Below are positions 6,942 to 64,000 of a stretch of DNA of 64,000 bases, in pieces. The notes beneath the pieces were generated by a model, which saw only the letters and a list, made by a program, of their open reading frames with translations, made no database searches and was not told the origin of the DNA. The stretch comes from an uncultured Candidatus Saccharibacteria bacterium (GTDB taxonomy: Bacteria > Patescibacteriota > Saccharimonadia > Saccharimonadales > JAGQNJ01), in NCBI GenBank assembly GCA_964584895.1, contig CAZPAW010000001.1:337504-401503 (forward strand), given 5' to 3'. The translations under genes and the position numbers were made by a program. How positions within the stretch are numbered: the first letter of the stretch is position 1; every line of letters begins with the position of its first letter.

Positions 6942-6991
6942 ATTACATAACTTTTGGTTTTCGGTTTGTCTTAGTATAACTTTTAGTCAAA

Positions 6992-7062
6992 AACAACAAC
7001 AGTCTGCGCAACTCATTCGTCGGTAACGGGCTTAAAACAGTCCTCAACTTATAGTTGTTGTT
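6992..7062 (+). repeat. intergenic hairpin, member of the three-tier hairpin family (copy R1)
   Basis: AACAACAAC (6992-7000) pairs perfectly with GTTGTTGTT (7054-7062). Junction sequences ACAACAGTCTGCG and AGTCCTCAACTTATAGTTGT match copy B at 59088-59186. Followed by TCAGGACAAGCCGGATGCC (7073-7091). Confidence 0.55.
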
Positions 7063-7172
7063 ACAAAACTATTCAGGACAAGCCGGATGCCGTTAAACGC
7101 TCGCTGGATCACATATCATATAAGCAGAAGCTTCTATATGTTAAACTGTAACAAAGGTAAACATAAGCACAT

Positions 7173-7961
7173 ATGAAACGCACACTTATCGTCGGTAACT
7201 GGAAAATGAATCTGAACGCTAGTCAGTCTAGCCTGTTATTACATCGTTTACATGAGCGAATAAAAATTTATCGGGACATTGAGGTAGTTTTGGCGCCTTC
7301 GATGTTGGTTTTGCAGCCACTGAGCCTTCAAATTGATAGACGAAAGTTTAGGTTAGCCGCTCAAAATGCTCATCCAACAGATGAAGGAGCTTATACTGGC
7401 GAAGTTTCCTTTACTCAATTACAAGAGCTTGTTCATTACACAATTATTGGCCATAGCGAACGTCGAATTCATTTTGGCGAAAGTCTAGATTTAATTAGAG
7501 ATAAAGTTGCAGCTTGTGTAAGGAATAATATCACCCCGATACTCTGCGTAGGAGAAACTAAAACTGAAAGACGAGCAGGAGAGACAAACCAAGTTCTTCA
7601 CGATCAGCTATCAACAGCGCTGGCAGACCTCACTTCAAACGAAGTAGCAAACATGGTGATTGCCTATGAACCGACCTGGGCAATTAGTACTTTTGAGGGC
7701 CAATTAGCAAAACCTTTAGAGGTAAAAAAGGCATTTGATTGCATCCGTAAGCAGGTTGGTGATCTGTATGGCAGAAAAACAGCCAGCAAAGTGAGGCTAT
7801 TGTATGGCGGTAGTGTTGATGAGCACTCTGCTAGAGGTTATTTAGAAATCGAAGGTTGTGACGGTGTATTGGTCGGAGGCGCTAGTCTTAACTATCACAA
7901 ATTTTCTGAGATTGTAAATTCTGCCTATCGTTCAAATAACGAGATTGAAAAGAGTAATTAA
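7173..7961 (+). CDS. tpiA: triosephosphate isomerase
   Basis: 262 aa. VGNWKMN, IIGHSERR, AYEPTWAIST, YGGSV motifs. Confidence 0.95.
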   Translation: MKRTLIVGNWKMNLNASQSSLLLHRLHERIKIYRDIEVVLAPSMLVLQPLSLQIDRRKFRLAAQNAHPTDEGAYTGEVSFTQLQELVHYTIIGHSERRIHFGESLDLIRDKVAACVRNNITPILCVGETKTERRAGETNQVLHDQLSTALADLTSNEVANMVIAYEPTWAISTFEGQLAKPLEVKKAFDCIRKQVGDLYGRKTASKVRLLYGGSVDEHSARGYLEIEGCDGVLVGGASLNYHKFSEIVNSAYRSNNEIEKSN

Positions 7962-12346: not shown

Positions 12347-12531
12347 TTCTGGCTCATGCACCACGGCGACCTGCTTTCTGGCAGAGCCAGAAACACTGTC
12401 GCCGTTCTCGGCACATTGCGATAGTTTTCGCTGCGGGGCGCAGTCGCCGTACCTAGCGTACGACTCCCTTACACTCCACGTGAAGAACTATTGAACTGCA
12501 CTCGAGCGCAAGACCCAGAATCGATTTTTTT
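12347..12531 (+). ncRNA. candidate structured RNA / 3'-UTR element of unknown class (GC-rich)
   Basis: Starts right after the stop codon and is locally GC-rich in an AT-rich genome. Nested stems GGCGAC(12365-70)/GTCGCC(12398-403) enclose TTTCTGGC(12375-82)/GCCAGAAA(12386-93). A competing 9-bp pairing is TTCTGGCTC(12347-55)/GAGCCAGAA(12385-93). CTGCG-GGG-CGCAG sits at 12431-43, and the element ends CCCAGAATCGATTTTTTT. Confidence 0.3.
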
Positions 12532-12587
12532 GATTTGACAATCCGTATAAAATTTAATATTTTACAAAACAGTGTTTACGCTCAAAT

Positions 12588-12616
12588 TTGACATAACTAC
12601 TTAGATATTCTAATGT
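12588..12616 (+). promoter_or_regulatory. putative sigma-70-type promoter
   Basis: TTGACA (12588-93), 17-nt spacer, TAATGT (12611-16), 38 nt upstream of the 12654 ATG. Confidence 0.35.
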
Positions 12617-12653
12617 ATATATACATATTTTAAGATTCAGAGGCGCAAAAATT

Positions 12654-13178
12654 ATGGCTCGACATTATATAGACAGAGGAACAAATGAAACAGAGGCTAG
12701 TGTTATGGCGATGGTTGCCTTAAACCCAGGTCAATACTTAATGAGTGACATTGCGAAAGAACTCGGTAAAATTCCTAGCTCAATAAGCAGCGCGGCGAGA
12801 GGCTTAGCTAGCAGGGGATGGTTAGAATCTGGGAATTCAAAGACTAAAAGACCAAATATTGCTTATAAAACACTTGTTCCAACGGATGAATTTTGGTCAG
12901 ATTACAAGAGAGTTGTCCAAGTTATCCACGAGTTTTTTGAATCAGATAAAAAACTAGAGCCGGTTTTTACAAACGCCATTACGGCTAAGCATGAGCTTGG
13001 CGATCTGAAGCCCGAATCCCAAGAGTATCTTGACCGACGAGTCGTGTACTTAGGAGGGATAGCAGTACTGGGTGAGCATGTCGATCTACATATAGCCACA
13101 TCTGGAGTGTGGTTTGCATATGAGCCAGGATGGCGCGCAATCGTTGACGTTCAGGTATCTCAAATTCCTGCTTCATAA
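12654..13178 (+). CDS. hypothetical protein, possible MarR-like winged-helix regulator
   Basis: 174 aa. The N-terminal segment LMSDIAKELGKIPSSISSAARGLASRGWLESG looks like an HTH recognition helix plus wing. Assignment is tentative. Confidence 0.45.
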   Translation: MARHYIDRGTNETEASVMAMVALNPGQYLMSDIAKELGKIPSSISSAARGLASRGWLESGNSKTKRPNIAYKTLVPTDEFWSDYKRVVQVIHEFFESDKKLEPVFTNAITAKHELGDLKPESQEYLDRRVVYLGGIAVLGEHVDLHIATSGVWFAYEPGWRAIVDVQVSQIPAS

Positions 13179-13202
13179 GTTTTTTTGCTAAGCTGTTGAT
13201 AT

Positions 13203-14154: not shown

Positions 14155-14541
14155 GGGGCTGAAATTATGCTCGACGTAGGACTTTATCAGTTAGATCGGC
14201 AGGTCGCTTGTCAGCGTATAGGCAACTATTTTAACTGCAAATGTTAAAAAACAGCTAGTAGCAGCTTTTGGAAATTTCCAAATGCCTAAACTAGCGCCCG
14301 CTTTAGTTTAACTAAAGCCACGCGGTAGAGTGACATCAGATAACATTACCAACGTGTCATATCATCTGGTTGCCTAAGTTTCGTTATTCGAAAACTTAGT
14401 AAGACAATAGGATATGCGAGACTTAATTTTTTTGTCTGTTTATAGATTGGGTTTCTAAGAAAAAGTAAAATAGACTATGCCTGTAGAAGACTAACAAAGA
14501 TAATCCAGCGGACCGGAGTGCAATTCTCCGCAGCTCCACCA
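14155..14541 (+). ncRNA. ssrA: transfer-messenger RNA (tmRNA)
   Basis: 5' GGGGCTGAAATTATGCTCGACG. The 3' end GGACCGGAGTGCAATTCTCCGCAGCTCCACCA gives a T-arm plus an acceptor stem pairing GGGGCUG/CAGCUCC with a G3:U pair and a terminal ACCA. An internal tag-like ORF runs GCA AAT GTT ... CTA GCG CCC GCT TTA GTT TAA (tentatively ...KLAPALV*, resume codon uncertain). Confidence 0.85.
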
Positions 14542-14574
14542 AAAGGGACTTTTCAGTTTTTGAAAGGTCTTTTT
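14533..14574 (+). repeat. 42-bp direct repeat, copy 1 (attL-like; last 9 nt of ssrA plus terminator)
   Basis: GCTCCACCAAAAGGGACTTTTCAGTTTTTGAAAGGTCTTTTT is identical to 17002-17043. Confidence 0.85.
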
Positions 14575-14734: not shown

Positions 14735-15886
14735 TTATGTGAGTATTTGTTCTATGGTTACTGTAGTTCGGCGTTTAGGATCTATGAGAATGTAGTTATT
14801 TTCTAACACCGCTTTACCGACACGCCAAGCAGCCTCTCCGCTGTATTCTCCATTGTCTGTTTCTACGTGATTTACTTGATCGTCCGAATCAGGCAGACTA
14901 TCGATAAAAGCTTGACGGGCTCGTCGTCGCTTGGATTCGGCTACAAAAGCTGCAAACTTCTCAGGGTCTTTTATTACATTGGGGGATTTTGTGTGTCGTC
15001 GCTTGGATTCTGCTACAAAAGCTGCAAACTTATCAGGATCTACAATTGTACCTTCCGAAGCACTTGGCGGATCTTCAGTTTCAGCTGTTTTCGGCGTACG
15101 GTCGTATGTATCGCGGAGAACATCTAGAGATTTACTAACGATTTGCTGAATACGTTGGTGGGTTAGCTTATGATCTAGACCAATTTCTTTAAAAGTCTTG
15201 GGCGCTCCGGAAAGACCAAAGTAAGAAAAAAGAATTTTAATGCTACGGTCAGGCAATTCGGCATCATTGATGAGTTTAACTATAGTTTCGCGTGCCTCAA
15301 CAACGTCTAATTCTGTTGATGCCCGACTGTCTGGTGCGTCGTGTTGCCACTCGAGCGGGGCGAGTTCTTCGGCTATATCCACGGCAAGGTCTGTTTGTTG
15401 ATCTTCATCAACATATCCTTCATAACTTGGGATTTGTTCGTTGTATGTTATATTTGGCAACGGAAGGGTCCCAAGAAATGCTTTTTCGAAAGCATGAACC
15501 GGGAGAGGCCATGGCATGTCTTCTATTGCGGCATATCGAACCATAGCATTAGTGATGCGCGGAAGAGCTAGCGTTGATAAAGCCCCCTGATCTGGTTTGA
15601 AGTCTGCTAATGTACTAGGCAATGCAAAGAAACCGGTTTGTACGAAATCTTCGAATTCTGCAAGGCTACCATTACTTCTTGCGAAACCGACTTTTATTGC
15701 ATTTAACTTTATTAAGTGGTTGTTTGTTTTTAGCGCACCAATGACTAATCTTGCACCATGGTAAAGAAGACCTAAATTCTCACCACATTCTCTCATTAAA
15801 TCAGTCGGGATAACAGGGGTTTCTCTATCGGGATTTGCAAGCGTGCCAGGCCCAATTTGTTCTCTTATCGCCTCATCAATTTCCAT
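14735..15886 (-). CDS. sigma-70 family-like protein with C-terminal tandem repeat
   Basis: 383 aa. Region-2-like FEDFVQTGFFAL...FKPDQGA..STLALPRITNAMVRY. Region-4 HTH-like LPDRSIKILFSYFGLSGAPKTFKEIGLDHKLTHQRIQQIVSKSLDVLR. C-terminal duplicated DP[DE]KFAAFVAESKRR. Confidence 0.7.
   Translation of the reverse strand: MEIDEAIREQIGPGTLANPDRETPVIPTDLMRECGENLGLLYHGARLVIGALKTNNHLIKLNAIKVGFARSNGSLAEFEDFVQTGFFALPSTLADFKPDQGALSTLALPRITNAMVRYAAIEDMPWPLPVHAFEKAFLGTLPLPNITYNEQIPSYEGYVDEDQQTDLAVDIAEELAPLEWQHDAPDSRASTELDVVEARETIVKLINDAELPDRSIKILFSYFGLSGAPKTFKEIGLDHKLTHQRIQQIVSKSLDVLRDTYDRTPKTAETEDPPSASEGTIVDPDKFAAFVAESKRRHTKSPNVIKDPEKFAAFVAESKRRRARQAFIDSLPDSDDQVNHVETDNGEYSGEAAWRVGKAVLENNYILIDPKRRTTVTIEQILT
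14924..15040 (-). repeat. 72-nt-period tandem duplication inside the sigma-like gene
   Basis: TCGTCGCTTGGATTC[G/T]GCTACAAAAGCTGCAAACTT[C/A]TCAGG[G/A]TC at 14924-14968 and 14996-15040, in frame (24 aa). Confidence 0.85.
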
Positions 15887-17001: not shown

Positions 17002-17043
17002 GCTCCACCAAAAGGGACTTTTCAGTTTTTGAAAGGTCTTTTT
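17002..17043 (+). repeat. 42-bp direct repeat, copy 2 (attR-like; includes a second copy of the ssrA terminator hairpin)
   Basis: Identical to 14533-14574. The sequence upstream of it is unrelated to the tmRNA body. Confidence 0.85.
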
Positions 17044-17117: not shown

Positions 17118-17399
17118 ATGAGTGAGCACGCTGCATACTGGTATATAACCGAGCGAGCAAGTATAGAAGAGCTGGAGGTCCTGGATGCAAGGATATGGCC
17201 GACTGACTTTGATACTTACATGGAGGGAAGCGGTAATTTATACTTAAAGTATGATCCCGTCGCTTCTATGGAAATGCTGGAACAGACGTGGCGTCAAGGA
17301 GTTTGGCTAGGAGGAGTTATCCACGCTCAGTTTAAGCAACAAACCGGTCACGAAGAACCAGCAGTGCTTTGGTGGTGCAAAGATTTCGATCAACTATAA
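17118..17399 (+). CDS. hypothetical protein
   Basis: 93-aa Trp-rich ORF starting 75 nt after repeat copy 2. Confidence 0.45.
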   Translation: MSEHAAYWYITERASIEELEVLDARIWPTDFDTYMEGSGNLYLKYDPVASMEMLEQTWRQGVWLGGVIHAQFKQQTGHEEPAVLWWCKDFDQL

Positions 17400-24397: not shown

Positions 24398-24649
24398 ATG
24401 GCAACTAATCTATTTGTAGGTTCATTGTCTTGGAACGTGACTGACGATCAGCTTAAAGAGTTGTTCGAAACAGTTGGTAAGGTTGTATCTGCAAAAGTTA
24501 TAACTGACCGAGACACTAATCGATCAAAAGGTTTTGGGTTTGTAGAAATGGGTTCAGATGATGAAGCCAAAGCTGCAGTCGACCAGTTGAATGGTAAAGA
24601 GCTTGACGGCCGACCAATCAACGTAAGCGAAGCCCGCCCTCGCGATTAA
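24398..24649 (+). CDS. RRM-type RNA-binding protein
   Basis: 83 aa. RNP2 LFVGSL and RNP1 KGFGFVEM. Strong RBS AAGGAG. Confidence 0.9.
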   Translation: MATNLFVGSLSWNVTDDQLKELFETVGKVVSAKVITDRDTNRSKGFGFVEMGSDDEAKAAVDQLNGKELDGRPINVSEARPRD

Positions 24650-24680
24650 TTTCAGATTTATCTGAAATTAATACAATCAA

Positions 24681-24709
24681 GACCTCGGAGCGATCCGGGG
24701 TCTTTTTTC
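24681..24709 (+). terminator. rho-independent terminator
   Basis: GACCTCGG-agcgat-CCGGGGTC stem (one G:U) followed by TTTTTT. Confidence 0.75.
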
Positions 24710-24753
24710 TTATATTGAATTATTATGCCACGTATGTTTAAGTAGGTGTTCGA

Positions 24754-25002
24754 ATGGAAGAAATACCAGAACCAACAATGGATCAAGACAATGGTGATGC
24801 ATTGCAAAAGTGGGGTACTTGGGTGTCTATCGCTGGGGTAGGTATTATTTTCGTGGGTGACGTCTTGATAGGGAGTAATACCTTTAATATCTGGGAGATA
24901 GAGCCATTTATTTACAACGTCGTTGCTGGCATAGGAGTAGCTGCTGTATCGGCAGGAATGGCGTTAACTTGCTCGGGGCTTAATCGTACAAGTAACCATT
25001 GA
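24754..25002 (+). CDS. hypothetical small membrane protein
   Basis: 82 aa with two hydrophobic helices. AGGTG lies 7 nt upstream of the ATG. Confidence 0.4.
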   Translation: MEEIPEPTMDQDNGDALQKWGTWVSIAGVGIIFVGDVLIGSNTFNIWEIEPFIYNVVAGIGVAAVSAGMALTCSGLNRTSNH

Positions 25003-30840: not shown

Positions 30841-31137
30841 TTATACGGCGTTTTCTATCGCTACTAAGGCCCCGTTGATAGCGTTGTTTACTCTTGAAAG
30901 TACGTTATCAGGAGGTGTTGTTCGTCCCGCTTCAAGCCCGGCAGCACCAAGTGCTACACCTAGAGCAACCATGCCACCCGTCACTATCTCTGCATCTCGT
31001 AGTGACACCATTCGGTCATGGTTGGCTAAGGACGCAGCTAACTCTGTCTGGCCGGAGGCAATAAAGCCAATACGCGCAAATGCTACTTCTCTTCTGGTTA
31101 CTCTCATCAAATCGTTGTTGCTATCAAATTCCATCAA
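30841..31137 (-). CDS. hypothetical protein
   Basis: 98 aa. A strong RBS (AAAGGAG) lies 5 nt upstream on the minus strand. Preferred over the overlapping + strand ORF 30875..31204, which has biased low-complexity composition. Confidence 0.5.
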   Translation of the reverse strand: MMEFDSNNDLMRVTRREVAFARIGFIASGQTELAASLANHDRMVSLRDAEIVTGGMVALGVALGAAGLEAGRTTPPDNVLSRVNNAINGALVAIENAV

Positions 31138-54394: not shown

Positions 54395-54685
54395 ATGCCA
54401 AAATCAAAATCAAAATCACAAAATCCAGAGTTAGAAATCAAGGCAAAACTCAGCGGAGCTGATGATTGGAAGCACTGGTGTAAAGAAAAGGGCAAAAACT
54501 CTAATGCCTCAACGCATGGGACAAGTGGGGCGCTGTACTTTGTTGGCTTTATTGGGTCATTAGTCTATTGGATGCAGGCAGCGGTTGGGTTTGGTGCGGT
54601 TGTAACAGGATTTTTAAAGGCTATGGTATGGCCGGCATATATTGTCTATAAATTGCTAGAGAGTTTTTACGGAGTAGTTATATAA
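54395..54685 (+). CDS. hypothetical small membrane protein
   Basis: 96 aa. Strong RBS AAAGGAG, basic N-terminus, two TM helices. Confidence 0.5.
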   Translation: MPKSKSKSQNPELEIKAKLSGADDWKHWCKEKGKNSNASTHGTSGALYFVGFIGSLVYWMQAAVGFGAVVTGFLKAMVWPAYIVYKLLESFYGVVI

Positions 54686-54810
54686 ATAGTTTTTACTTCA
54701 CGATTCCGATTGTATTAGACCAATAAAACTAAATTCATTCTTTCTTACGAGCTAAAGCTCGCGCCATATTACTTTGTGCCGACAAAGTAATACAAAACTC
54801 CTGGCTAGAC

Positions 54811-54927
54811 ACTAAAACACTACTAGGCTGTTAGTTGTTTGTACAATGCTTAGCAGAACTTGGGCTTTGCCCTCAAACAGCTGCACGCAATAATTGTACA
54901 AACCACAACACCCTAATCGGTTTTAGT
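54811..54927. repeat. long imperfect intergenic hairpin (copy A of the hairpin family) between convergent genes
   Basis: ACTAAAAC(54811-18)/GTTTTAGT(54920-27). GTTGTTTGTACAAT(54834-47)/ATTGTACAAAC-C-ACAAC(54893-909). Inner GGGC-ttt-GCCC. A separate perfect 11-bp hairpin TATTACTTTGT-gccg-ACAAAGTAATA lies at 54767-54792. Confidence 0.5.
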
Positions 54928-55015
54928 GCTTTTAGGCAAGAAACAACACCCAAAACACTGCATCTATTCAGGAAAAAATCAGAGACCCATTAAACGATAA
55001 ACAAAAATTTCTAAA

Positions 55016-55522
55016 CTAAAAAATGCAGTTGATGTCGTCTTCATCGAACGTAGAGTTGATGGCGACATCGGCGGCAAACTGAGATGATGCTATAAAGTCA
55101 TGGAGTTCGCCAAATTCTGCCAATTGGCGATGTGCCTTTATTGCGGCTTTTTGTTGGCGGGTAGAAAGCCCAGCGGTTATTCCAGTCAATCCTTGAATGG
55201 GCGGTGGATCTGTTACTAAATCAATGTAACATGATAGTTTGACTGTGCAACTAGCACATACGCCTCGAGCGACTTCTACTCCTTTGGCGTTGCCGGGGCC
55301 CGGGTGCATAATTTTAGGGTTTGTTAACTTTCTGCAAAGAGCGTCTTTTTTCCATCTGGAATCTATGGTTAACGGGTTTACTTTTATTGACATTGTACTG
55401 CCTCTTGCTGGGGATGGCGGGGCTGTTCGTTCAGGGATATCACTGATAGTGAATGCTTCGTCAATAATTTCAAATTCTGCCATGATAAAACAGATAATAT
55501 AACTATCTAGGACTTTGTTCAA
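55016..55522 (-). CDS. WhiB-like (Wbl) Fe-S cluster-type regulator homologue
   Basis: 168 aa (TTG 55522; alternative ATG 55483). W..DALC-x25-CASCTVKLSC gives the C-Xn-C-X2-C-X5-C spacing of WhiB proteins, followed by G[I]TAG.S..Q resembling the GVWGG turn. Confidence 0.6.
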   Translation of the reverse strand: MNKVLDSYIICFIMAEFEIIDEAFTISDIPERTAPPSPARGSTMSIKVNPLTIDSRWKKDALCRKLTNPKIMHPGPGNAKGVEVARGVCASCTVKLSCYIDLVTDPPPIQGLTGITAGLSTRQQKAAIKAHRQLAEFGELHDFIASSQFAADVAINSTFDEDDINCIF

Positions 55523-55555
55523 CTACTAGTAACCCCGACAACCGCAATATAATTG

Positions 55556-55584
55556 TTGACAAATATAGTGTAATGCCCTATAAT
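55556..55584 (+). promoter_or_regulatory. consensus sigma-70 promoter
   Basis: Perfect TTGACA (55556-61), 17-nt spacer, perfect TATAAT (55579-84). About 185 nt upstream of the 55772 ATG. Confidence 0.6.
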
Positions 55585-55695
55585 GTCTTTTTACGGAGAT
55601 AATTCTCTGGGAGCAAAATAGCATACAGTGACTATGGCTTCCACCGAAACAGCATTGTCCCAAATCAAAGTACGCGTCCACATCTATTGTGCCTA

Positions 55696-55763
55696 GCGCC
55701 TCTACCTTGACTAAGCAATTCGCGCACTAAGGCGACTACTTAATCAAGCGTCAAAGGAGGCGC
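55696..55763 (+). promoter_or_regulatory. candidate SD-sequestering leader hairpin
   Basis: GCGCCTC..CCTTGAC (55696-711) can pair with GTCAAAGGAGGCGC (55750-63), which contains the AAGGAGG RBS of the 55772 ORF. Confidence 0.35.
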
Positions 55764-55771
55764 TATTTATT

Positions 55772-56362
55772 ATGTTTTTAAGAAAAACATTAGAGCAAAA
55801 ACTACCAGTCAGAGATGACGAAGTAAGGTTGCCAGATTCAGTCTCTAGAGGTATCTTCAGAGGCTCATATCTTTTGCCTACAAAAATAACAAAAATTGAA
55901 AACAAAAGAAACAATAGACCCCGCACTATGGATGCATATCCTTGGCAGAGAAAAGTTACAAAAACCTATTCCGACGGATCAAAAATCTTTAAAGGAGATA
56001 GTTGGGATGACATAGTATACTCAGAAGCAATTAGCTACGAAGATTTAGATATAGCTAACAGCCCTGCTGGTTTGCGTCGAGCGACACGAATTGAAAGCGT
56101 TGCTAGACGGATAAAAGCCGTAGCATTGGGTGTCGGTGCAGCCGCATTAGTGGGATTACTTACAATCGGTGTACTAAGCGATTCATCTGATAGTAGTAAT
56201 GAGAGTCCAGAACTTCCGGCATGCGAAAGTGTTGCCGATAATGGCGAATCATTACTTGGGATAGCAGACGATCAAATAGATCCTGCTAATCAACTTGGGC
56301 AAACTGTTTGTTCGATTAATGACGATAATTACCTTGTCGTTATGCCAACAGAACCTCAATAA
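55772..56362 (+). CDS. hypothetical bitopic membrane protein
   Basis: 196 aa, RBS AAGGAGG. Central TM (AVALGVGAAALVGLLTIGVL) and a short Cys-containing C-terminal ectodomain. Confidence 0.5.
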   Translation: MFLRKTLEQKLPVRDDEVRLPDSVSRGIFRGSYLLPTKITKIENKRNNRPRTMDAYPWQRKVTKTYSDGSKIFKGDSWDDIVYSEAISYEDLDIANSPAGLRRATRIESVARRIKAVALGVGAAALVGLLTIGVLSDSSDSSNESPELPACESVADNGESLLGIADDQIDPANQLGQTVCSINDDNYLVVMPTEPQ

Positions 56363-56407
56363 ATTTAACTAAATATATAACAACGTCTTAAGGAGGCGTA
56401 AATTAAC

Positions 56408-56977
56408 ATGGAAAAATTAAAACCAAAAAAATCATTAACAAGAGCAGTGATATTAACTCTAGGGCTGGCAGTAGCAAGTGCTTGTTCGGCCGAGTCCACT
56501 ACTCATACAGGCGAAACGACCGCATCTGATGTTTTTACAACATTGGATGTTGAGGTGATTAGACCTGGACAAAGCGCATTTAGCGGTTTATCAACTGATA
56601 ACGAAGAGCACGAGGCGATTACAGACGATTTAGATATTGTCGATGATCAACACCCTAATAGTTGGGATGATGATGGTGCACCACTTATCGGTCAGTTACC
56701 GGTAAGAGTTGACGCCCACCAATCCTTTACGAATGAAGCAAAAGCTGGTTTTAGCAATGATATTGGTTGTGATAGCTTTCCGCTTGATCTTCAAGGATTA
56801 GATAGCTCTGAGGTATATGTTGGCGCCGTAGCGCTTAGCGATTCTGATGATGATAGGGTACTAATTAGCTGGCCACGAACTGACGGCAAGCCTGCTAATC
56901 ATATTTTGATGTGCATGGATGACACTCGTGAGCCAGCCGATGGCGTAGTGCTGTTTGTATCCGATCAACAACGTTAA
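56408..56977 (+). CDS. putative secreted protein / lipoprotein, acidic
   Basis: 189 aa, RBS AAGGAGG. Signal peptide ending LAVASAC (imperfect lipobox). Confidence 0.55.
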   Translation: MEKLKPKKSLTRAVILTLGLAVASACSAESTTHTGETTASDVFTTLDVEVIRPGQSAFSGLSTDNEEHEAITDDLDIVDDQHPNSWDDDGAPLIGQLPVRVDAHQSFTNEAKAGFSNDIGCDSFPLDLQGLDSSEVYVGAVALSDSDDDRVLISWPRTDGKPANHILMCMDDTREPADGVVLFVSDQQR

Positions 56978-57040
56978 TATTCTATAATAAAACTAATAAG
57001 TCATATATTGACTATAATGCAATAGTGTTGTTAAGATATT

Positions 57041-57655
57041 ATGATGATAGATATTGAACGCGGTGAGGCGACGCCTCCACTTTTTGTAATGCGAACAGGG
57101 CAAATTTATTCATCGCCTTATGGTTTTTTTGATGAATTAGCCAAACGTCTCGATGCCCATATGATAGTCCCAGAAGACATCAGGCAAGAGTTTGTTGAAA
57201 AATATGATGTACCAGAGGGGCATGAAAGGTCTGCTCCCGTCAGAGAGATGACAAGGATTATTGCCGAGCAGCAAGTTGTTGAAGGTTTAGAAAAGGGTGA
57301 CAACGTCGTCTACGAGGGTCTTCTAAATCAGGCTAATCGTAGACAGTATTTACGAGAAGTTGCAGAGAGTTGCGGGGCTTTAACCCTGTTAATTGTTACA
57401 AAATCATCATTTGATGATATTTCAAAGCGGATACACCAGCGTGCCAGTGGCGAAATTGATGGCGTAGAGCCAAAAGATCAAGAGTGGATTGATAGAAAAA
57501 AATTTGGTTATCATAGAGTACAAAGTTCGATTGAATGGCCAAATAATGAAGCACATTTATCATTGCGATGCGATTTTGGCAGAGACACCGAAGAATTGTT
57601 TCGGGTTGTTGAAAAACGGATTGAAGACATCTACTGGAGCGCCCGAAATAAATAA
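57041..57655 (+). CDS. hypothetical protein, P-loop-kinase-like fold without a Walker A motif
   Basis: 204 aa. The central and C-terminal parts (NVVYEGLLNQANRRQYLREVAESCGALTLLIV...RIHQR) resemble AAA_33/zeta-toxin-type kinases. The expected GxxxxGK[ST] position reads MRTGQIYSSPYG. Weak assignment. Confidence 0.4.
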   Translation: MMIDIERGEATPPLFVMRTGQIYSSPYGFFDELAKRLDAHMIVPEDIRQEFVEKYDVPEGHERSAPVREMTRIIAEQQVVEGLEKGDNVVYEGLLNQANRRQYLREVAESCGALTLLIVTKSSFDDISKRIHQRASGEIDGVEPKDQEWIDRKKFGYHRVQSSIEWPNNEAHLSLRCDFGRDTEELFRVVEKRIEDIYWSARNK

Positions 57656-57724
57656 GTTTAATTAAACGCTAACCTAGAAGTAATATCATGCTTATGGATT
57701 TAATGATTGTAAGGAGTACACTTT

Positions 57725-58198
57725 GTGTATATGACAAACCCAGAGTTATTCGTACCAGATAATTATCTTGAACTATGTCAGGGCCTACAAGAGGTTATTG
57801 CATCGGTCCCGCCAGACGAACAAGACATAGCAGGTGCCAAAGTACGCGAAATGGCAGGCAAAGCTGTATATTTTGGTGAAAAAAAGCTAGAAGTAAGGAC
57901 CTTGGGTGCATATGCCTTGCCAGATGGACTAACGATGGAAAGCGATGTTTGGCCAACTGTTAGTTTTGGTGCAATGAGGCTACGGGGCGAACTAGCGCAA
58001 CTTGCCTATGCAAGAGTTGGGCGTGTTAGGTCGCTTATGTGGATGATGGTAGAACCCAAAGTGAGAGAAGCCAGTCCAACACCGTCAACTAACATATTTG
58101 ACGCAGAAGTTGCCAGACTGGGTTATAAAAATGATGTGCTTCGGCGACCGCTATATCTACCAGTAGGAATGATCGAATCTGTTATCATTGCTGCCTAA
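57725..58198 (+). CDS. hypothetical protein
   Basis: 157-aa ORF (GTG 57725 or ATG 57731). Confidence 0.45.
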   Translation: MYMTNPELFVPDNYLELCQGLQEVIASVPPDEQDIAGAKVREMAGKAVYFGEKKLEVRTLGAYALPDGLTMESDVWPTVSFGAMRLRGELAQLAYARVGRVRSLMWMMVEPKVREASPTPSTNIFDAEVARLGYKNDVLRRPLYLPVGMIESVIIAA

Positions 58199-58293
58199 GT
58201 TAATATTTTGGTTAAGTTAATTGGTGATTAATTTTTACTACTATAAGATCGCAAACTTGACAAAGGGCCTAATAGTTGTAAGATACTATTATT

Positions 58294-58920
58294 ATGAGAC
58301 TAAAAGAATCAGTGGCTGAACTACTGACACCTCAATCTCAAGAACTTATTCGTAGAGAAGCTGCTGATTTTCAGACACCCCTAGGCTATACTTTTTCTTT
58401 AGCTGTAAACAACATAGGTAAGCCATTGGCAACTAAACTAACTACTGCATCAGAGATCATTGAACCCTACGATGCGGATTTACATGAGGTTGTTGATCGA
58501 GAATCAGACAATAGAGATGCATTTATCAGAGGTGGCTTATTGGCGGTTAGACTTTGTTATGAATATTTTGGGCCAAATTTTCAGGATGAAATGAGCGATT
58601 ATGAACACGATCTGATACCTCTTCCTGATACAAATAATTCACTTTATCCAGAATTAAGAAAAAATAGAACTGAAGCAATAATTGAATTTGCTGAAGATGG
58701 CTGGAGGGTTGCGGAGCCAGAATTCGGTGATTTATTCGAACAATGGGAAGATATGATTGTGCCTAAAATGTCCGCACAATATTATTTACGGCCAGGTTTT
58801 GGTTATATTGTTAAGCTCGCATCAAAAGTCGAAGAAGTGATAGCTGATAAATTAGAGGCTATAGCCGTTGCGCCACCAGATGCTTGGGATGATGCATTAA
58901 CAAGAGAGCTTTCGCTTTAA
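58294..58920 (+). CDS. hypothetical acidic protein
   Basis: 208-aa ORF, last gene of the co-oriented ORFan block. Confidence 0.45.
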   Translation: MRLKESVAELLTPQSQELIRREAADFQTPLGYTFSLAVNNIGKPLATKLTTASEIIEPYDADLHEVVDRESDNRDAFIRGGLLAVRLCYEYFGPNFQDEMSDYEHDLIPLPDTNNSLYPELRKNRTEAIIEFAEDGWRVAEPEFGDLFEQWEDMIVPKMSAQYYLRPGFGYIVKLASKVEEVIADKLEAIAVAPPDAWDDALTRELSL

Positions 58921-58956
58921 CTAAAACTTGTAACTTTCTTACTATCTTATCGATTA

Positions 58957-59260
58957 GCGCGTTTTCATACTTTCTTAATCAGCAAAAATCAACATTCTTT
59001 TTTAGAGCCAATTTCTCATACTTTTCTCAGTAGCAAGAAAAGTATGCAAAAGTGCCATGCTTCCTGTTTTTCGTGATGTAACTTCCAGTCAATGCCTACA
59101 ACAGCCTGCGGAATGCAAGCACCCCGAATAGTTCTTTAAGTGTAAGTATTCGGGGGAGTCCTCGGCTGATCAGTTGTAGGATTGACGAAGTTACTCAAGA
59201 AAAACAGAGGCAATTCAACTGCAGTCAGTGCAACATCATAACAACCCGGACGCCCAAATA
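58957..59260 (+). repeat. composite intergenic repeat, copy B (block 1 + three-tier hairpin 59088-59186 + short motifs)
   Basis: Colinear with 62651-63100. The identical 26-mer CTCATACTTTTCTCAGTAGCAAGAAA is at 59015-40 and 62713-38. Hairpin CATACTTTTC/GAAAAGTATG at 59017-46. CTCAAGAAAAACAGAGGC at 59194-211. CCCGGACGCCC at 59245-55. Confidence 0.7.
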
Positions 59261-59393
59261 AACACAAACAAGGAGATATAAAACCAAAGTCCTAGTAAAC
59301 CCTCTCTTAAGCGCGTAAGTTACAACTGATAAATTTTACAACAGTTTACGTCTTCGGTAACATGTAAAATGTATGCATAAGCATTGAGGGGTA

Positions 59394-62300
59394 GTGTTTG
59401 TGCTAATATTGGAAAAACCAAACAAGTATATAAGCGCGATAAAAATTATTTTATTCATTAGTTTGTTATTAACGGGTTTAACTTTATTAAACCCAAGAAC
59501 AACCTATGCATTCAGTGGGGGTAGTGGCGCATCGGATGACCCTTATCAAATCACAACTCCAGCAGAACTAGCTAGCATGACAAGCTACTTGGGTTCTGGA
59601 AATTCAGGCAAGTACTTCAAGTTAATGAACGATATCGACCTTGACGTTTCGCCGTATAACACGGGTAGCGGCTGGACACCTATTGGTAACAGCAGTAGCA
59701 ATTTTTACGGCAAGTTTGATGGCGACGGGCATAGCATCTCCGGATTGTATATCAATAGGACTACTAGCTATGGTGGCTTGTTTGGCTATACGCAAGGCGC
59801 AACAATCCAAAACGTTAGTTTGACGGGCGCCAACGTAACAAGCACCGCTACTTATACCGGCATCCTAGTGGGCAGAGCATACAACAATAATACGATAAGC
59901 GGTGTCTCTGCCAGTGGCACCATAAGCTCTAGTAGTAACTATGTCGGCGGCTTAATCGGCTCGATGCATTCTGGTGTAATTACCAACGCAAATTCCTCAG
60001 CAGCCGTGACTGGCGCTCAGTACGTTGGCGGTTTGCTTGGTGAGATAAATGGCACAACCTTGACCAACCCGGATATTAGTGATTCTTATGCTACAGGCGA
60101 TATCAGGGCGGACTCATACATTGGCGGCTTTGTGGGCTACAAGGTTTATGGAGCTGTAAGCCGATCTTACGCAAGCGGCGATATTTTGGGCGATCGCACC
60201 GGAGGGTTAACTAATGATTACGGTGGTGGCTTTGTCGGGGCTGTATGTTACGGCTCAATTGTCAGATCATATGCTACTGGTAATATATATGGTGATAACG
60301 AGCTGGCAGGGTTCGGCGGTCTTAGCCATAACTGTAGCGGTACTACCATTACCGACAACTATGCGCGTGGCGATGTCTATCCTTCGGTATCTGGCACCGG
60401 TGGCGGGTTTATGAGATATAACTATCTTGCCACGGTGCAACGTAATTTTTCTACAGGCTTAGTAGATGGTCAAACTAATGCAGGTTTCATATATTGGGAT
60501 GTTGGTTGTGGCGGTTGTTCAAATAATTATTGGGATACCCAAACCAGCGGTCAGAGTACCGGAGGACTTTTCGCTGGTGGCGGTGCTACAGGTAAAAATA
60601 CTCTCCAAATGAAGACCGTTGACACCTATACTACATCCAATGCTTGGGATTTTGTCGGCAACCCGATTAATGATGTTGCTAATAATGATTACTGGGACAT
60701 CAATGGTACTACCAACGACGGTTATCCATTTCTGGCTTGGCAAAGCGCCAATTCTAATCCAGATACTCCCGATATAAGTGCGACAAACTCTGATTTTACA
60801 GTCGGCGATTGGCAGCAGGACACCACACCAACTTTTTCAATGACCTTGGCCGACGATAACGTAAGCGACACTGTTAAATATACGATTGAAGTAGACGATT
60901 CCAGCGATTTTGGCAGCCCGGTAGTAGAGTACACGTCGGCCTTAGCCGCACAAGGCGAGGTGAGTTTTACGCTTGGACAAGCAGCTGGCAGTGGTACCTA
61001 TACCACGGGCAGTGAAGGACAGACACTCGGCGAGGCACAGTACTATTGGCGCGTTAAATCTATTGACGAAAACGACGCCGAAAGCTCGTATACCACGGCA
61101 AACAGTGGAGGTGTCGCGTTTGGAGTTGACACGGCTGTACCTACTACTCCAGGAACTCCGTCGACCACTACGCCAACATCAGATACTACGCCCACATGGA
61201 CCTGGACGGCTAGCACCGATAGCGGGTCAGGCCTATCAAGCAGCCAAACATATATACTTTCGTATTCTCAAGACGCTGATTTTGATTCCTACACCTCTAC
61301 AGATGTTTTAACCAATAGCTTTACCCATGGCACCCCGCTCGGTGAAGGCACATGGTATGTACGCGTAGCAGCGCTTGATAATGTCGGTCGCACATCGACG
61401 ATATCCGATACCGCGACAATTTTAGTTGATACATCGTCGCCAACTGTGCCGGGGACACCGAGTATGCCGGCAAGTGCAACAAATGATACTACGCCCACAT
61501 GGACCTGGACGGCCAGTACCGATAGTGGCGCGGGACTACACTCTACGCCGTATACATTTTATTTCTCCATGGATTCTGATTTTAGTAGTGGGTCATTTTC
61601 GACCGCGAGCTCAAATAGCTTCACTCACTCTTCGCCCTTAAGTGAAGGCAGGTGGTATGCTCGATTAACGGCGCGCGACGCCGTTGCTAATACCTCTGCC
61701 AATTCATCATCGGGATCGGTATATATTGATACAACTGCACCAACAACCCCTGGCAAACCTGCACCTTCAACGAGTAATTCAGATGATACGCCATCATGGA
61801 CCTGGACGGCTAGCACAGATAGCGGATCTGGCCTTGCCAGTAGCGAAAAATACACAATTCAGTGGAGTAAAAGCAGCACTTTTGCAAGTGGAGTATATAC
61901 CACCACCAGCAATACTAACTCATTTACTCACAGCAGTTCGCTAGCAGATGGCACCTGGTATTTTAGGGTAAAATCAAACGACTCAGCTACAAACCAATCT
62001 GGCTACAGCACAAAAGGCAGTATTACTATTGATACGACAATAGAGACTCAAGATAGCGAAGCTAGTTCTTCAGATTCCCAAGCAACTGATGCTACCATCG
62101 AATTTTTTAGCGCAATTATTGACAACACAAAACAAGACCAGCAAAAACCAGTCACGATTATTTTGGACGATTTTCCAGAATACCGATCTGCAGGGAAAAA
62201 GATCAGAGTTAACGAAGGGCAATTACTATATTTTTGCGCGAACAATACAAAATCATGCAAAGATTCAAACAAGCATTCTATAACCATAGATTCAATAGAT

Positions 62301-62630
62301 TTAATCAATAAAACTGTTACCGTGACGGTTCGCTCAACACCGCAAACGTACACATTTGCTTTAAACGACCAAAAGAAAGTAGATGTAGATTACGATGGGG
62401 AACCCGACATTGAAATATCGCTCAGTTATTTAGGGATTGATCACGCCGGATTTAAATTCAAAGGTTTGGCTGCAGCATCTTCGGGTGCAGTCCAAACCAC
62501 CGAAAGCAACAATACTGTCAATAAATCTAACAGCACTGCTCGGCAGTGGGTAGCAGTAGCTGTAGTTGTTATAGTTGGTATATTGGTTACAAAGACGATT
62601 AAAGCCAAGAGATTACGCGCCAGTAAATAG
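59394..62630 (+). CDS. large surface protein: signal peptide, GLUG-motif repeats, four FN3-like modules, C-terminal TM anchor
   Basis: 1078 aa, GTG start with GAGGGG RBS. Signal peptide ...NPRTTYA/FSGG. Repeated Y[VI]GG[LF][IVL]G...G.I.N GLUG-type motifs. About 100-aa modules carry DTTPTWTWTASTDSGSGL and GTWY.RV. C-terminal WVAVAVVVIVGILV + KAKRLRASK. Confidence 0.8.
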   Translation: MFVLILEKPNKYISAIKIILFISLLLTGLTLLNPRTTYAFSGGSGASDDPYQITTPAELASMTSYLGSGNSGKYFKLMNDIDLDVSPYNTGSGWTPIGNSSSNFYGKFDGDGHSISGLYINRTTSYGGLFGYTQGATIQNVSLTGANVTSTATYTGILVGRAYNNNTISGVSASGTISSSSNYVGGLIGSMHSGVITNANSSAAVTGAQYVGGLLGEINGTTLTNPDISDSYATGDIRADSYIGGFVGYKVYGAVSRSYASGDILGDRTGGLTNDYGGGFVGAVCYGSIVRSYATGNIYGDNELAGFGGLSHNCSGTTITDNYARGDVYPSVSGTGGGFMRYNYLATVQRNFSTGLVDGQTNAGFIYWDVGCGGCSNNYWDTQTSGQSTGGLFAGGGATGKNTLQMKTVDTYTTSNAWDFVGNPINDVANNDYWDINGTTNDGYPFLAWQSANSNPDTPDISATNSDFTVGDWQQDTTPTFSMTLADDNVSDTVKYTIEVDDSSDFGSPVVEYTSALAAQGEVSFTLGQAAGSGTYTTGSEGQTLGEAQYYWRVKSIDENDAESSYTTANSGGVAFGVDTAVPTTPGTPSTTTPTSDTTPTWTWTASTDSGSGLSSSQTYILSYSQDADFDSYTSTDVLTNSFTHGTPLGEGTWYVRVAALDNVGRTSTISDTATILVDTSSPTVPGTPSMPASATNDTTPTWTWTASTDSGAGLHSTPYTFYFSMDSDFSSGSFSTASSNSFTHSSPLSEGRWYARLTARDAVANTSANSSSGSVYIDTTAPTTPGKPAPSTSNSDDTPSWTWTASTDSGSGLASSEKYTIQWSKSSTFASGVYTTTSNTNSFTHSSSLADGTWYFRVKSNDSATNQSGYSTKGSITIDTTIETQDSEASSSDSQATDATIEFFSAIIDNTKQDQQKPVTIILDDFPEYRSAGKKIRVNEGQLLYFCANNTKSCKDSNKHSITIDSIDLINKTVTVTVRSTPQTYTFALNDQKKVDVDYDGEPDIEISLSYLGIDHAGFKFKGLAAASSGAVQTTESNNTVNKSNSTARQWVAVAVVVIVGILVTKTIKAKRLRASK
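60751..62040 (+). repeat. in-gene tandem modules (~300-nt period, 4 copies)
   Basis: Near-identical stretches GATACTACGCCCACATGGACCTGGACGGC[T/C]AG[C/T]ACCGATAG[C/T]GG at 61182 and 61485, a related copy at 61782, and a degenerate first module from about 60751. Confidence 0.8.
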
Positions 62631-62650
62631 TCTTACGGAATCTAAAGATT

Positions 62651-63100
62651 CGCGTGTTTCATGCTTTCTCAATCAGAAAGAATACGGTGTTCTTTTCTAA
62701 AGAACCAAATCACTCATACTTTTCTCAGTAGCAAGAAATTCGCTGTACAGCGCAATGCAAAAGCTCGGGTTATTTCAAAAATTATCATGCCACTCTTAGA
62801 GTTTCACAATTTCAACTTTTGGTAGCAAAAGTTGAGCAAAAACCACCAAGCAAATAAAAGAACTAGATGAAAGTTTTCACAACAAACCTCGTGCCTGTGG
62901 AATGCAAGCACCCCAAATGGTTTAATTAGAGTAATTATTTGGGGATGTCCTCGGCAATGATTCGAGATTTGTTATAAAAACTATCTCTGTTTTTCAGGGC
63001 ATGGATCCAAACTACAATAATCATAAACGAAGTTAATCAGGGCAAGCCGGACGCCCAAGTCAAACAGCATCTGCTCAGGAAAAATCAGAGGCAGATGAAA
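62651..63100 (+). repeat. composite intergenic repeat, copy C (block 1 + hairpins + three-tier hairpin 62872-62982 + short motifs)
   Basis: See copy B. Extra perfect hairpin CAACTTTTG-gtag-CAAAAGTTG at 62813-34. TCAGGGCAAGCCGGACGCCC at 63037-56. CATCTGC-tcaggaaaaatcagag-GCAGATG at 63068-97. Confidence 0.7.
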
Positions 63101-63151
63101 CGCAAAAAAACTCTAAAAAATTGGTCCATAAATTGTACATCCTGCTAGTGC

Positions 63152-63181
63152 TTGCAATTTAGATATCGATGAAACGATAAT
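63152..63181 (+). promoter_or_regulatory. putative promoter
   Basis: TTGCAA (63152-57), 18-nt spacer, GATAAT (63176-81), 25 nt upstream of the 63206 ATG. RBS AAAGGAG. Confidence 0.35.
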
Positions 63182-63205
63182 AGAACTATCTAAAGGAGAA
63201 AAAAT

Positions 63206-63532
63206 ATGCCTAAAGACCCGGGAGAAGTAGCTTTTGAGAGCCAGATTGAGTTTAATGGACAAGCACTTGATGTCCACCAACTAATTCCTCAGCTTCCATG
63301 TAGCCCAGAAAAGAGAGCGCAATGCCTTGAGCACCTTGAGGAAGGCAGAGGTGATGAAATGTATAGTGATTTTTGGCTTATGGGCTGTGATTTCCCTGTG
63401 GCCTTACAAGAAGGTGAAGTAACGGTTCAATTAGCCTGCAAAGGAATAACGAGATTTACCAAAAGGTGCCGTCTAACTCTCACTCAATATAGTGCAGATG
63501 GCGATATACTCAACAAAGGCAGCTTCGAGTAG
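63206..63532 (+). CDS. hypothetical Cys-containing small protein
   Basis: 108-aa ORF with a strong RBS. Confidence 0.45.
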   Translation: MPKDPGEVAFESQIEFNGQALDVHQLIPQLPCSPEKRAQCLEHLEEGRGDEMYSDFWLMGCDFPVALQEGEVTVQLACKGITRFTKRCRLTLTQYSADGDILNKGSFE

Positions 63533-63712
63533 AAGATTACTCGCCATCTCAACGAGCATCCCAAAAATTCGAAGACAGGTAACATCTTCTCAGGAAAAAT
63601 CTGAGACACAAATAAGGGCATAATTTTAAAATAAAATACCCCACTTCTAAAATCCCCTCCTAGAACTTCTTGCTACATAGGAGTAAAATATATTTAAACC
63701 AAAGGAGTAAGT

Positions 63713-63931
63713 ATGATCGATGAATATATTAAAACATTTTTATGGGGAATTACTGGGGCGGTAACGATGGCGGTTGCGCTACCCTTGCTATTGTGGGTTT
63801 TCGATAAGTTTACTCCTGTTAATGAATGGGCTGAGATAAAAAAGGGCAATATGGCGGTAGCCATTATTTTGGGTGCGTTAATTTTAAGTTTTGCGATTGT
63901 AATGGGGCTTTCAGTTGTACCATCAGTCTAG
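63713..63931 (+). CDS. DUF350-like small membrane protein
   Basis: 72 aa, RBS AAAGGAG. Two TM helices flank ...PVNEWAEIKKGNMAVAIILG..., typical of the YjfL/DUF350 family. Confidence 0.6.
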   Translation: MIDEYIKTFLWGITGAVTMAVALPLLLWVFDKFTPVNEWAEIKKGNMAVAIILGALILSFAIVMGLSVVPSV

Positions 63932-64000
63932 AGTAGGTGATAAGATAGTCCGCCGAATAGTACTTGCGGTAACTATTCTTGCATTGCTAGTAGCAACGCC

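Follow-up and report, generated by a model that had tools for sequence, protein, structure and literature searches.

Long intergenic hairpins in a Candidatus Saccharibacteria genome as probable copies of a modular palindromic repeat

The DNA analysed here is a stretch of 64,000 nt from contig CAZPAW010000001.1 of an uncultured Candidatus Saccharibacteria bacterium (the window; coordinates are window positions, and L-numbers such as L010 or L023 denote loci of relatives). It is a housekeeping region that carries ppdK, pyk, pgk, tpiA, uvrD, the tmRNA gene, bipA, metG, alaS, obg, uvrA and others. Four long hairpins, termed R1, A, B and C, are the longest unbranched hairpins of its true intergenic DNA and are the subject of this report. 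R1 lies inside the gene string pyk-pgk-tpiA, which has no terminator. The other three are found in the last 10 kb, amid genes for hypothetical and surface proteins, where B and C bracket the gene of a 1078-amino-acid (aa) Big_13/GLUG protein. Pfam scans of essentially all open reading frames (ORFs) of at least 90 aa bore out the statement of a first-pass annotation of this DNA that no integrase, reverse transcriptase or transposase is present in the window.

The same annotation had described a hairpin of common architecture at four loci. The stems, the loops and the replacement of a G:C by an A:T pair that it quoted are present at all four, and both the flanking framework and the covariance-model scores agree that the hairpins are genuine copies of one family. 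Its positions were correct and its extents too short: the true hairpins of B and C are much longer (Table 1), and the 59088-59186 given for B is the inner part of that hairpin. Stability was assessed by folding the plus strand as RNA and comparing it with dinucleotide shuffles. The z-score was -5.8 for copy B (0 of 200 shuffles were as stable), -4.7 for copy A and -3.9 for copy C. R1 was only marginally stable over the 6992-7062 first assigned to it (z = -1.8), and the full element is the one that scores well with the family model. Copy A has no family-model match at E <= 1. It is nevertheless a true relative, as had been proposed, because it has the flanking framework (CGAGC-N4-GCTCG, ATTACTTTGT-N4-ACAAAGTAAT, the CAAAACTCCTGGCT linker and the TCAGGAAAAA tail) in common with the L017 and L011 copies. 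The spacers of B and C are paralogous across about 450 nt, beyond the hairpin alone; the outer arms of C are unlike those of B, and its basal helix is flipped. The long hairpins at 17261-17377, 24815-24915 and 30929-31059 were rejected as relatives; located within or next to unlisted ORFs, they have no relation to the family.

Table 1. Coordinates of the four hairpins and of the modules of their units in the window
Feature	Position	Strand	Remarks
Copy R1 (type II core), pgk/tpiA spacer	6959-7094	+	Covariance model 105 bits; ortholog L023:9784-9919
R1 3' base arm TTCAGGACAAGCCGGATGCC	7072-7091	+	
Copy A unit, whole	54748-54988	+	Homologous units L011:4950-5145 and L017:106-296
Copy A unit, small GC hairpin	54748-54761	+	
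Copy A unit, M0 hairpin	54768-54791	+	
Copy A unit, linker	54792-54806	+	
Copy A unit, long hairpin	~54798-54945	+	40 pairs at 54810-54928
Copy A unit, tail	54961-54988	+	
B unit, half copy M1a	58965-58989	+	
B unit, M1 (CATACTTTT...AAAAGTATG)	59016-59046	+	Same module 5' of copies in L010, L011, L013, L017 and L019
Copy B, full long hairpin	59058-59212	+	59 pairs, minimum free energy (MFE) -64 kcal/mol; covariance model 161 bits, E = 5e-37
Copy B core (middle helix and type I apical stem-loop)	59102-59168	+	
B unit, 3' tail (CAGTCAGTGCAAC, CCCGGACGCC, conserved block to CCTAGTAAACCCTCTC)	59222-59306	+	
C unit, M1 variant with inserted CGCTGTACAGCG hairpin	62714-62764	+	Matches L010:319-366
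Copy C, full long hairpin	62846-63004	+	54 pairs; covariance model 50.7 bits, E = 1e-9, outside seed
Copy C core	62891-62956	+	81% identity to B core
C unit, 3' tail	63037-63097	+	TCAGGGCAAGCCGGACGCC at 63037-63055
C unit, tail hairpin CATCTGC-TCAGGAAAAATCAGAG-GCAGATG	63068-63097	+	
Solitary tail-type hairpin TCTCAG-GAAAAAT-CTGAGA, next spacer	63588-63606	+	Probably a unit remnant

The covariance model was built from a seed of nine copies, with the copies C, L011, L017 and L019 outside the seed. On the plus strand it detected 13 copies, spread over the window and six genomes of Saccharibacteria, and the four non-seed copies scored 41-57 bits (E = 1e-7 to 4e-11). Chance does not explain the family, because C reached its score from outside the seed and the same model had no match below E = 0.25 in 727 kb of unrelated viral DNA. 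Pattern, regular-expression and covariance-model searches, the tpiA-centred loci of relatives included, bring the family to a total of about 16 copies, all of them intergenic and all in a small set of Candidatus Saccharibacteria genomes. A scan of one genome per species for the pattern GGAATGCAAGCA-N26-50-GTCCTCGGC gave five true matches, all in Candidatus Saccharibacteria metagenome-assembled genomes of three species (three in CAZEED01 and one each in DAISWO01 and CAZBSC01), besides seven chance matches in other phyla, where about seven are expected on a back-of-envelope estimate. One further Saccharibacteria-like contig with the element came from a scan of JGI metagenomes. Copies are 80-95% identical across species, and their density is four per 64 kb in the window and three per 20.8 kb in L023. 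Eight other Saccharibacteria, with a TpiA 75-82% identical to the window's, contributed 159 kb in which no copy was found.

That the element belongs to no known RNA family, as had been suspected, was confirmed with Rfam: at the gathering threshold the window contains the tmRNA only, and at E <= 10 nothing was found at the elements over 54600-64000. A phage or plasmid origin was rejected, with no matches in viral contigs, phages or plasmids; a blastn search against phage and plasmid collections was likewise negative. Copy B had no blastn match in 5,426 E. coli genomes, and hence none to ERIC. The literature search revealed no description of such an element and no interspersed repeat family for Saccharibacteria or other candidate phyla radiation (CPR) bacteria. 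The repeat family is previously undescribed. In two public Logan contigs, L003 and L004, the first base falls exactly within copy B's core (GCGGAATGCAAGC). The repeat breaks short-read assemblies.

Each hairpin is part of a modular unit of 200-450 nt, which consists of an AU-rich 5' hairpin, the long hairpin and a 3' YTCAGGAMAA motif. The small 5' hairpin M1 reads CATACTTTYCT-N8-10-AGRAAAGTATG and is found in the B unit and, from 62714, in the C unit. M0 (ATTACTTTGT-N4-ACAAAGTAAT) consists of 10-bp arms that are perfect inverted repeats, separated by 4 bp, and is flanked by CGAGC-N4-GCTCG on its 5' side and by CAAAACTCCTGGCT on its 3' side. Its pairing is kept by changed sequence, from ATTACTTTGT/ACAAAGTAAT in the window to CACACTTTTA/TAAAAGTGTG in L011. 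The 3' motif (YTCAGGAMAA...GAYGCC) forms the 3' basal arm of the long hairpin in B (59192-59212) and in R1, and a small hairpin of its own in the C and A units. The tail of B is 80% identical over 102 nt to L011:5931-6032, a stretch that adjoins an unrelated radC.

The middle helix of the long hairpin, CAGCCTGYGGA / TCCTCGGCTG, is conserved and carries at least three types of apical module: type I (GGAATGCAAGCA-CCCCRAAT...ATTYGGGG-KAG), type II (GGAACTCA-TCCGCC...GGCGGG-CTCARACAG) and type III (GGAACTT-GGTACTAAGTATGCC...). The L019 copy has the type I loop on another stem, CTTCCGAAC/GTTCGAAAG. CTGYGGAA and AGTCCTC look invariant partly through ascertainment, as the search patterns demanded both; in A, L011_A and L017b, which are diverged copies, they are altered. 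The arms form subfamilies that recur across genomes, namely B-like (window, L010, L013 and L008), R1-like (window, L023 and the base of L008), L011/L017, C, L019 and A-like (window, L011 and L017b). The first-pass annotation was right that the outer stems differ, but this is mainly a subfamily difference recurring in several genomes and no free drift. Modules have also been shuffled: the two L013 copies combine the same arms with different apical modules, and L023b and L023c combine an identical apical module with different arms. In the C type the basal helix is flipped relative to the core, and its 5' arm CTCAAAAAAATAGA resembles the 3' arm CTCAAGAAAAACAGA of B.

Pairing was examined in a MAFFT alignment of the nine copies, which was not fitted to the structure and has a consensus of 41 pairs. 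Standard pairs make up 88.5% of the cells, compared to 78.2 +/- 1.1% with shuffled partners. Two-sided changes occur in 18 of the 41 pairs, compared to 11.0 +/- 1.7 in the shuffles and 4-7 when the partners were slid by 1-3 columns; for both measures 0 of 500 shuffles reached the observed value. Many of the double changes are common to the copies of one subfamily, so that there are fewer independent events than cells. Double changes, including flips from U-A to A-U, far outnumber one-sided G-U intermediates. Compensatory changes above the shuffled level thus uphold the earlier observation that pairing is preserved while the sequence changes. Selection on RNA, which had been inferred from it alongside selection on single-stranded DNA, is not upheld, given the strand-symmetric folding and the G-U pairs. 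The lower MFE belongs to the plus strand in nine of the 16 copies and to the minus strand in seven, about 56 G-U pairs are predicted on either strand, and the alignment cells contain 11 G-U and 14 A-C. A U-G pair is conserved in the basal helix of six of the nine copies, and each of three derived substitutions in the window's R1 produces a plus-strand G-U; with so few cases, no decision between RNA and DNA follows from them. Because neither MFE nor G-U pairs show a strand preference, the hairpin potential is symmetric, which is the pattern of a DNA-level palindrome. The signature of a one-strand RNA, with a reverse complement that folds worse and more G-U than A-C, is absent across the 16 copies and in the nine-copy alignment, and a dedicated one-strand structured RNA, being without the expected strand signature, is unproven.

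The copies have neighbours of unrelated function that are not orthologous from one genome to the next, among them topA/def, pgk/tpiA, an S-adenosylmethionine (SAM) methyltransferase, an EcoRI-type methylase, radC and a surface protein; members of one subfamily stand at unrelated loci in different species. As with B and C, other pairs of units bracket single genes: an aldo-keto reductase (L017b/L017), the SAM methyltransferase (L013p/L013m, inverted) and a small coiled-coil protein (L011_A/L011). Beside the inverted methyltransferase-flanking pair lies a tRNA-Met gene (L013:1527-1680), followed 60 nt later by a partial, att-like copy of its 3' end. Co-orientation with the neighbouring genes was seen for 12-13 of the 16 copies, and L013m, L023c and L019 are antisense to both neighbours; gene direction is confounded with replication direction, the GC skew being positive throughout the window. 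For the genes that follow B and C, promoters are predicted at 59335-59363 and 63152-63181, 3' of the hairpins. An intrinsic terminator was rejected, as no U tract follows any copy; canonical terminators are found elsewhere, for example after the tmRNA gene and at 24679-24711.

The pgk-tpiA spacer contains the element in the window (231 nt), in the 99%-identical strain L152 and in L023 (259 nt; TpiA 89% identical). In six species (L027, L031, L032, L033, L034 and L035) this spacer is 2-90 nt long and free of it, and L026 has a different GC-rich hairpin at this position. The spacer after a G5-domain gene contains two inverted copies in L023 (L023b and L023c), none in the window, and in L152 a truncated copy at its end, where about 700 nt with a MarR-like gene stand in the window. 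In L152:10494-10629, compared with 12521-13202 of the window, the MarR-like gene (12654-13178) is missing and about 135 nt stand in its place. These include the truncated, antisense R1-type element (CAAGACAAATGGATAGCCCGATGGTTTTG), and the breakpoint falls exactly at the end of a 36-nt block (GAACTATTGAACTGCACTCGAGCGCAAGACCCAGAA, 12485-12520) that is 92% conserved in L023. The block stands beside a second GC-rich hairpin repeat (CCTGCTTTCTGGCAGAGCCAGAAAC; 12347-12653, hairpin 12363-12405), which resembles the spacer hairpin at L026:9806-10000 and whose 307-nt spacer has a very stable fold. The pgk-tpiA spacer of L029 (9811-10000) has yet another insertion, of about 150 nt, which duplicates the first 32 nt of tpiA and leaves a 44-codon stub ORF.

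Although four-fold sites are saturated between the window and L023 (35-36% identical), hairpin R1 is 78.6% identical to its ortholog over 154 nt and the whole spacer 81% over 231 nt. Nucleotide identity is 66% for pgk and 76% for tpiA; two other spacers of 80-120 nt reach 42-50%, and a 45-nt spacer dominated by a promoter box reaches 71%. The 3' 52 nt of the pgk-tpiA spacer are unique to the locus and 94% identical, and the insertion is therefore ancestral to both species. The conservation of R1 is not put down to recent recombination, since no tract stands out in the identity profile and tpiA is saturated at its four-fold sites. The long-term retention of R1 in a glycolytic gene string argues for a host-level role of at least some copies. 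A 29-codon ORF (7087-7176) starts in the GGATGCC of R1, 8 nt after AGGA, and ends with an ATGA that overlaps the tpiA start. The reading frame stays open in both L023 and L152; eight changes are non-synonymous and three synonymous. As the changes are mostly non-synonymous, it is probably not coding; it may be a coupling upstream ORF, or nothing.

With moderate confidence, the hairpins are interpreted as members of a multi-copy, lineage-restricted family of modular palindromes between genes, which in Saccharibacteria would be the counterpart of REP/REPIN, ERIC and BOX. They are assigned to this kind because they are extragenic and multi-copy, keep their arms complementary by double changes, are gained and lost, occur with the same subfamily at unrelated loci, and exchange modules. 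Among the options named in the first-pass annotation, the REP-like element fits best to extragenic, multi-copy, palindromic sequences with presence/absence polymorphism and with one subfamily at non-orthologous loci. Such a repeat would spread or be homogenised as DNA, perhaps by way of a single-stranded foldback intermediate that is handled by a trans-acting enzyme encoded outside the window; alternatively, recombination or gene conversion between copies might propagate it. Most copies share the orientation of the transcription unit in which, or just behind which, they are located; they are therefore probably co-transcribed, and the host may keep some of them as intercistronic or 3' stem-loops in RNA processing and stability, or as DNA sites. 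A co-transcribed stem-loop is the most plausible host-level role, and retention of some copies by the host would account for a pgk-tpiA copy that is still about 80% identical across saturated neutral divergence.

REPINs have two inverted conserved arms and a less conserved centre, form hairpins in single-stranded DNA or mRNA, and commonly show compensatory changes (PMC3116915). The elements described here are like REP/REPIN, the repeats of Pseudomonas and Enterobacteria associated with RAYT, a Y1/HUH transposase whose gene REPs usually flank, in being extragenic and multi-copy, in their conserved inverted arms, variable centre and compensatory changes, in vertical persistence combined with gain and loss, and in the occurrence of inverted pairs. 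They differ in their longer foldback (about 135-155 nt, versus 20-60 nt for REP and 70-110 nt for REPIN), in copy number (tens rather than hundreds per genome, as extrapolated from the window), in asymmetric extra modules (M0/M1 and the tail) and swapped apical modules, in the lack of a RAYT in the DNA examined, and in belonging to another phylum with no sequence similarity. ERIC, also called IRU, is an imperfect intergenic palindrome of about 127 bp whose sequence is conserved across species while its positions differ; variants with internal insertions occur, and effects on mRNA stability are reported. The elements share with ERIC the long imperfect intergenic palindrome, the conserved sequence at differing positions and the variants with insertions, but have no similarity to E. 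coli genomes, a different and much narrower taxonomic range, and no TA duplication that could be shown here. BOX of Streptococcus pneumoniae is an intergenic array of linear modules, boxA-boxB(n)-boxC, with a stable predicted structure; it is not known to have a terminal-repeat or duplication signature or a transposase. Modular build, stable predicted structure and intergenic site are common to both, whereas the variable module here sits at the tip of one long foldback instead of in a linear array, and there is no sequence relation. Correia elements and other miniature inverted-repeat transposable elements (MITEs) are characterised by terminal inverted repeats, target-site duplications and a parent insertion sequence (IS), and occasionally create regulatory signals. 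The elements resemble them as small, non-coding, inverted-repeat sequences with insertion polymorphism, which was seen at the pgk-tpiA site and for L023b/L023c. Unlike MITEs, they are palindromic as a whole within asymmetric unit flanks, and neither terminal inverted repeats nor target-site duplications nor a parent IS could be shown here. Between the unit ends, TCATACTTT... to ...CAGAGGCA or ...GGAYGCC, there is no inverted-repeat relation, and the sequences 5' of M1 have no motif in common.

Several observations weigh against a repeat of this kind. Pfam scans of the window and of the neighbourhoods of the copies linked no transposase, RAYT or recombinase to any copy, and a tblastn search of about 380 kb with an approximate IS200 TnpA query had no match. 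Neither a target-site duplication nor a precise insertion border could be defined, divergence between filled and empty sites having blurred the exact junctions. The units are asymmetric, as M0/M1 flanks a single side, where a classical MITE would have terminal inverted repeats, and the density in the window, about one per 16 kb, is far below that of REP. A purely functional site, in RNA or DNA, would equally account for the conserved bulges, the U-G kept in the arms and the long conservation of R1. Between the 99%-identical strains the R1 spacer differs at 7 of 231 positions (3.0%), close to the 3.5% of four-fold sites (Fisher p = 0.84), a rate that sits uneasily with strong constraint. Recent changes in this spacer may be near-neutral, several of them keeping the pairing, or the long-term similarity of R1 may come partly from homogenisation between copies.

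Among the alternatives, a cis-acting structured RNA is a lesser possibility. The hairpin would be co-transcribed as an intercistronic or 3'-untranslated element, for example as an RNase III or exonuclease barrier with differential stability as its effect; the host would select it directly, and its multi-copy spread would be secondary. The identity of about 80% in orthologous R1 alongside saturated neutral sites, the strong pairing in the nine-copy alignment, the co-orientation of most copies with genes, the terminator-free string around R1, its three plus-strand G-U substitutions and the basal-helix U-G all speak for it. The absence of any overall strand asymmetry in MFE or G-U pairs does not, nor do the three copies antisense to both neighbours, flanking genes without a common function, the lack of the element in most Saccharibacteria, the free swapping of the apical part, or downstream promoters predicted 3' of B and C. 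Strand symmetry also tells against genes for small trans-acting or protein-binding RNAs, in which each 200-300 nt unit would be an independent transcript with three hairpins. Fixed unit polarity with three conserved modules and the recurrence of the junction motifs CTGYGGAA and AGTCCTC and of the loop TCAGGAAAAA are in line with such genes, and the RNA would be new, as Rfam gave no match. They are very unlikely, however, since the unit borders have no conserved promoter or terminator, the invariance of the junctions is partly a search artefact with the motif missing from A, L017b and L011_A, and copy number and positions vary among close relatives. Double-stranded DNA binding sites, be they operators, sites of a nucleoid protein or cruciform palindromes recognised symmetrically, have a slightly smaller chance still. 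In their favour are the sequence conservation of both arms, the equal folding of the two strands and the perfect inverted repeat of M0; but 150 bp is far longer than any operator, the arms change by compensatory swaps that alter the sequence and keep the pairing, and asymmetric bulges are conserved.

The first-pass annotation had also likened the stem ends to integron attC sites. These are imperfect palindromes of 60-140 nt at gene ends, with bulged bases and single-strand folding, and the elements recall them in these respects. An attC-type site, folded as single-stranded DNA, would mark single-gene cassettes of an integron-like system with its recombinase elsewhere; the four bracketed accessory genes, the conserved arm bulges reminiscent of extrahelical bases and the gene-content breakpoint next to a copy in L152 would suit it. 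This reading is rejected and retains hardly any probability, as it fails every feature tested. The termini of B, C, R1 and their relatives are CTGTTTTTC.../...GAAAAACAGAGG or GGCTTTCC.../...CCGGATGCC, without the RYYYAAC/GTTRRRY boxes (R''/R'), and the AAC/GTT runs are internal and outside the consensus. No IntI-type integrase was among the window's ORFs of at least 90 aa in the Pfam scan, and there are no intI-adjacent cassette arrays. R1 is located between the housekeeping genes pgk and tpiA, and three copies are inverted, whereas attC sites stand one to a promoterless cassette in a single orientation. Folding has no bottom- or top-strand bias, unlike that of attC, and the sequence is highly conserved across species, unlike the variable sequence of attC, which keeps only its structure. 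Improbable, though less so than small RNA genes, are folded single-strand recombination or processing sites of an unrecognised Saccharibacteria system that would exchange single accessory genes as cassettes without IntI or, equivalently, a new modular structured element whose CUGYGGAA/AGUCCUC junction would be bound by a dedicated protein.

Other candidates were discarded. RNA-gene scans ruled out a tRNA or tmRNA origin of the elements, and nothing consistent with a sigma-70 promoter was found inside M0, M1 or the arms by eye or with a scanner. The 3' strand of the element contains ACAGUCCU, presumably the substrate 8-mer of the sTRSV hairpin ribozyme; the opposing strand and the second loop do not fit loops A and B, the Rfam hairpin model had no match, and ACAGUCCU is regarded as a coincidence. 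Hammerhead, K-turn and box C/D motifs in GGCUGAUCAG are not conserved among the copies. IS110 bridge RNA and the omega-RNA of IscB/TnpB were dismissed, as the window has no such gene. The TIGR arrays of CPR bacteria are tandem arrays beside a Nop-domain gene (PMC12045711); the units here are dispersed, with no Nop-domain gene nearby.

Some further features of the window were recorded. The surface-protein gene between B and C (59394-62630) has three internal repeats of about 300 nt (at 61174, 61477 and 61774) and a G+C content of locally 48.6%, compared to about 40%. Part of the B tail (59253-59270, CCCAAATAAACACAAACA) is 78% complementary to the first codons of this gene (59395-59412) and, judged from the sequence, could pair with them over a long range across the start codon. 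The last 42 nt (14533-14574) of the tmRNA gene region (gene 14155-14541), terminator included, are repeated exactly 2.5 kb downstream (17002-17043). The repeats bracket three minus-strand ORFs, one of them sigma-70-like (14735-15886) and two without a Pfam match; the segment looks like an island integrated into ssrA, and no integrase is present. A gene for an RRM-type RNA-binding protein of 83 aa, below the 90-aa cut-off for ORFs, is located at 24398-24649 and is followed by the textbook terminator at 24679-24711, which indicates that the genome does use canonical terminators.

The genomes of Saccharibacteria and other CPR bacteria are very small and tightly packed, and a repeat family in such streamlined genomes is of moderate interest. 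A conserved modular repeat of 150-450 nt breaks metagenomic assemblies, as in the two public contigs, and marks differences in gene content between 99%-identical strains. It also sits in a glycolytic gene string, where it has long been kept. Possible applications are strain typing and, in those few strains that can be cultivated, use as a landing site, either neutral or regulatory. A partner enzyme, should there be one, would provide a new handle on gene exchange in these reduced genomes.

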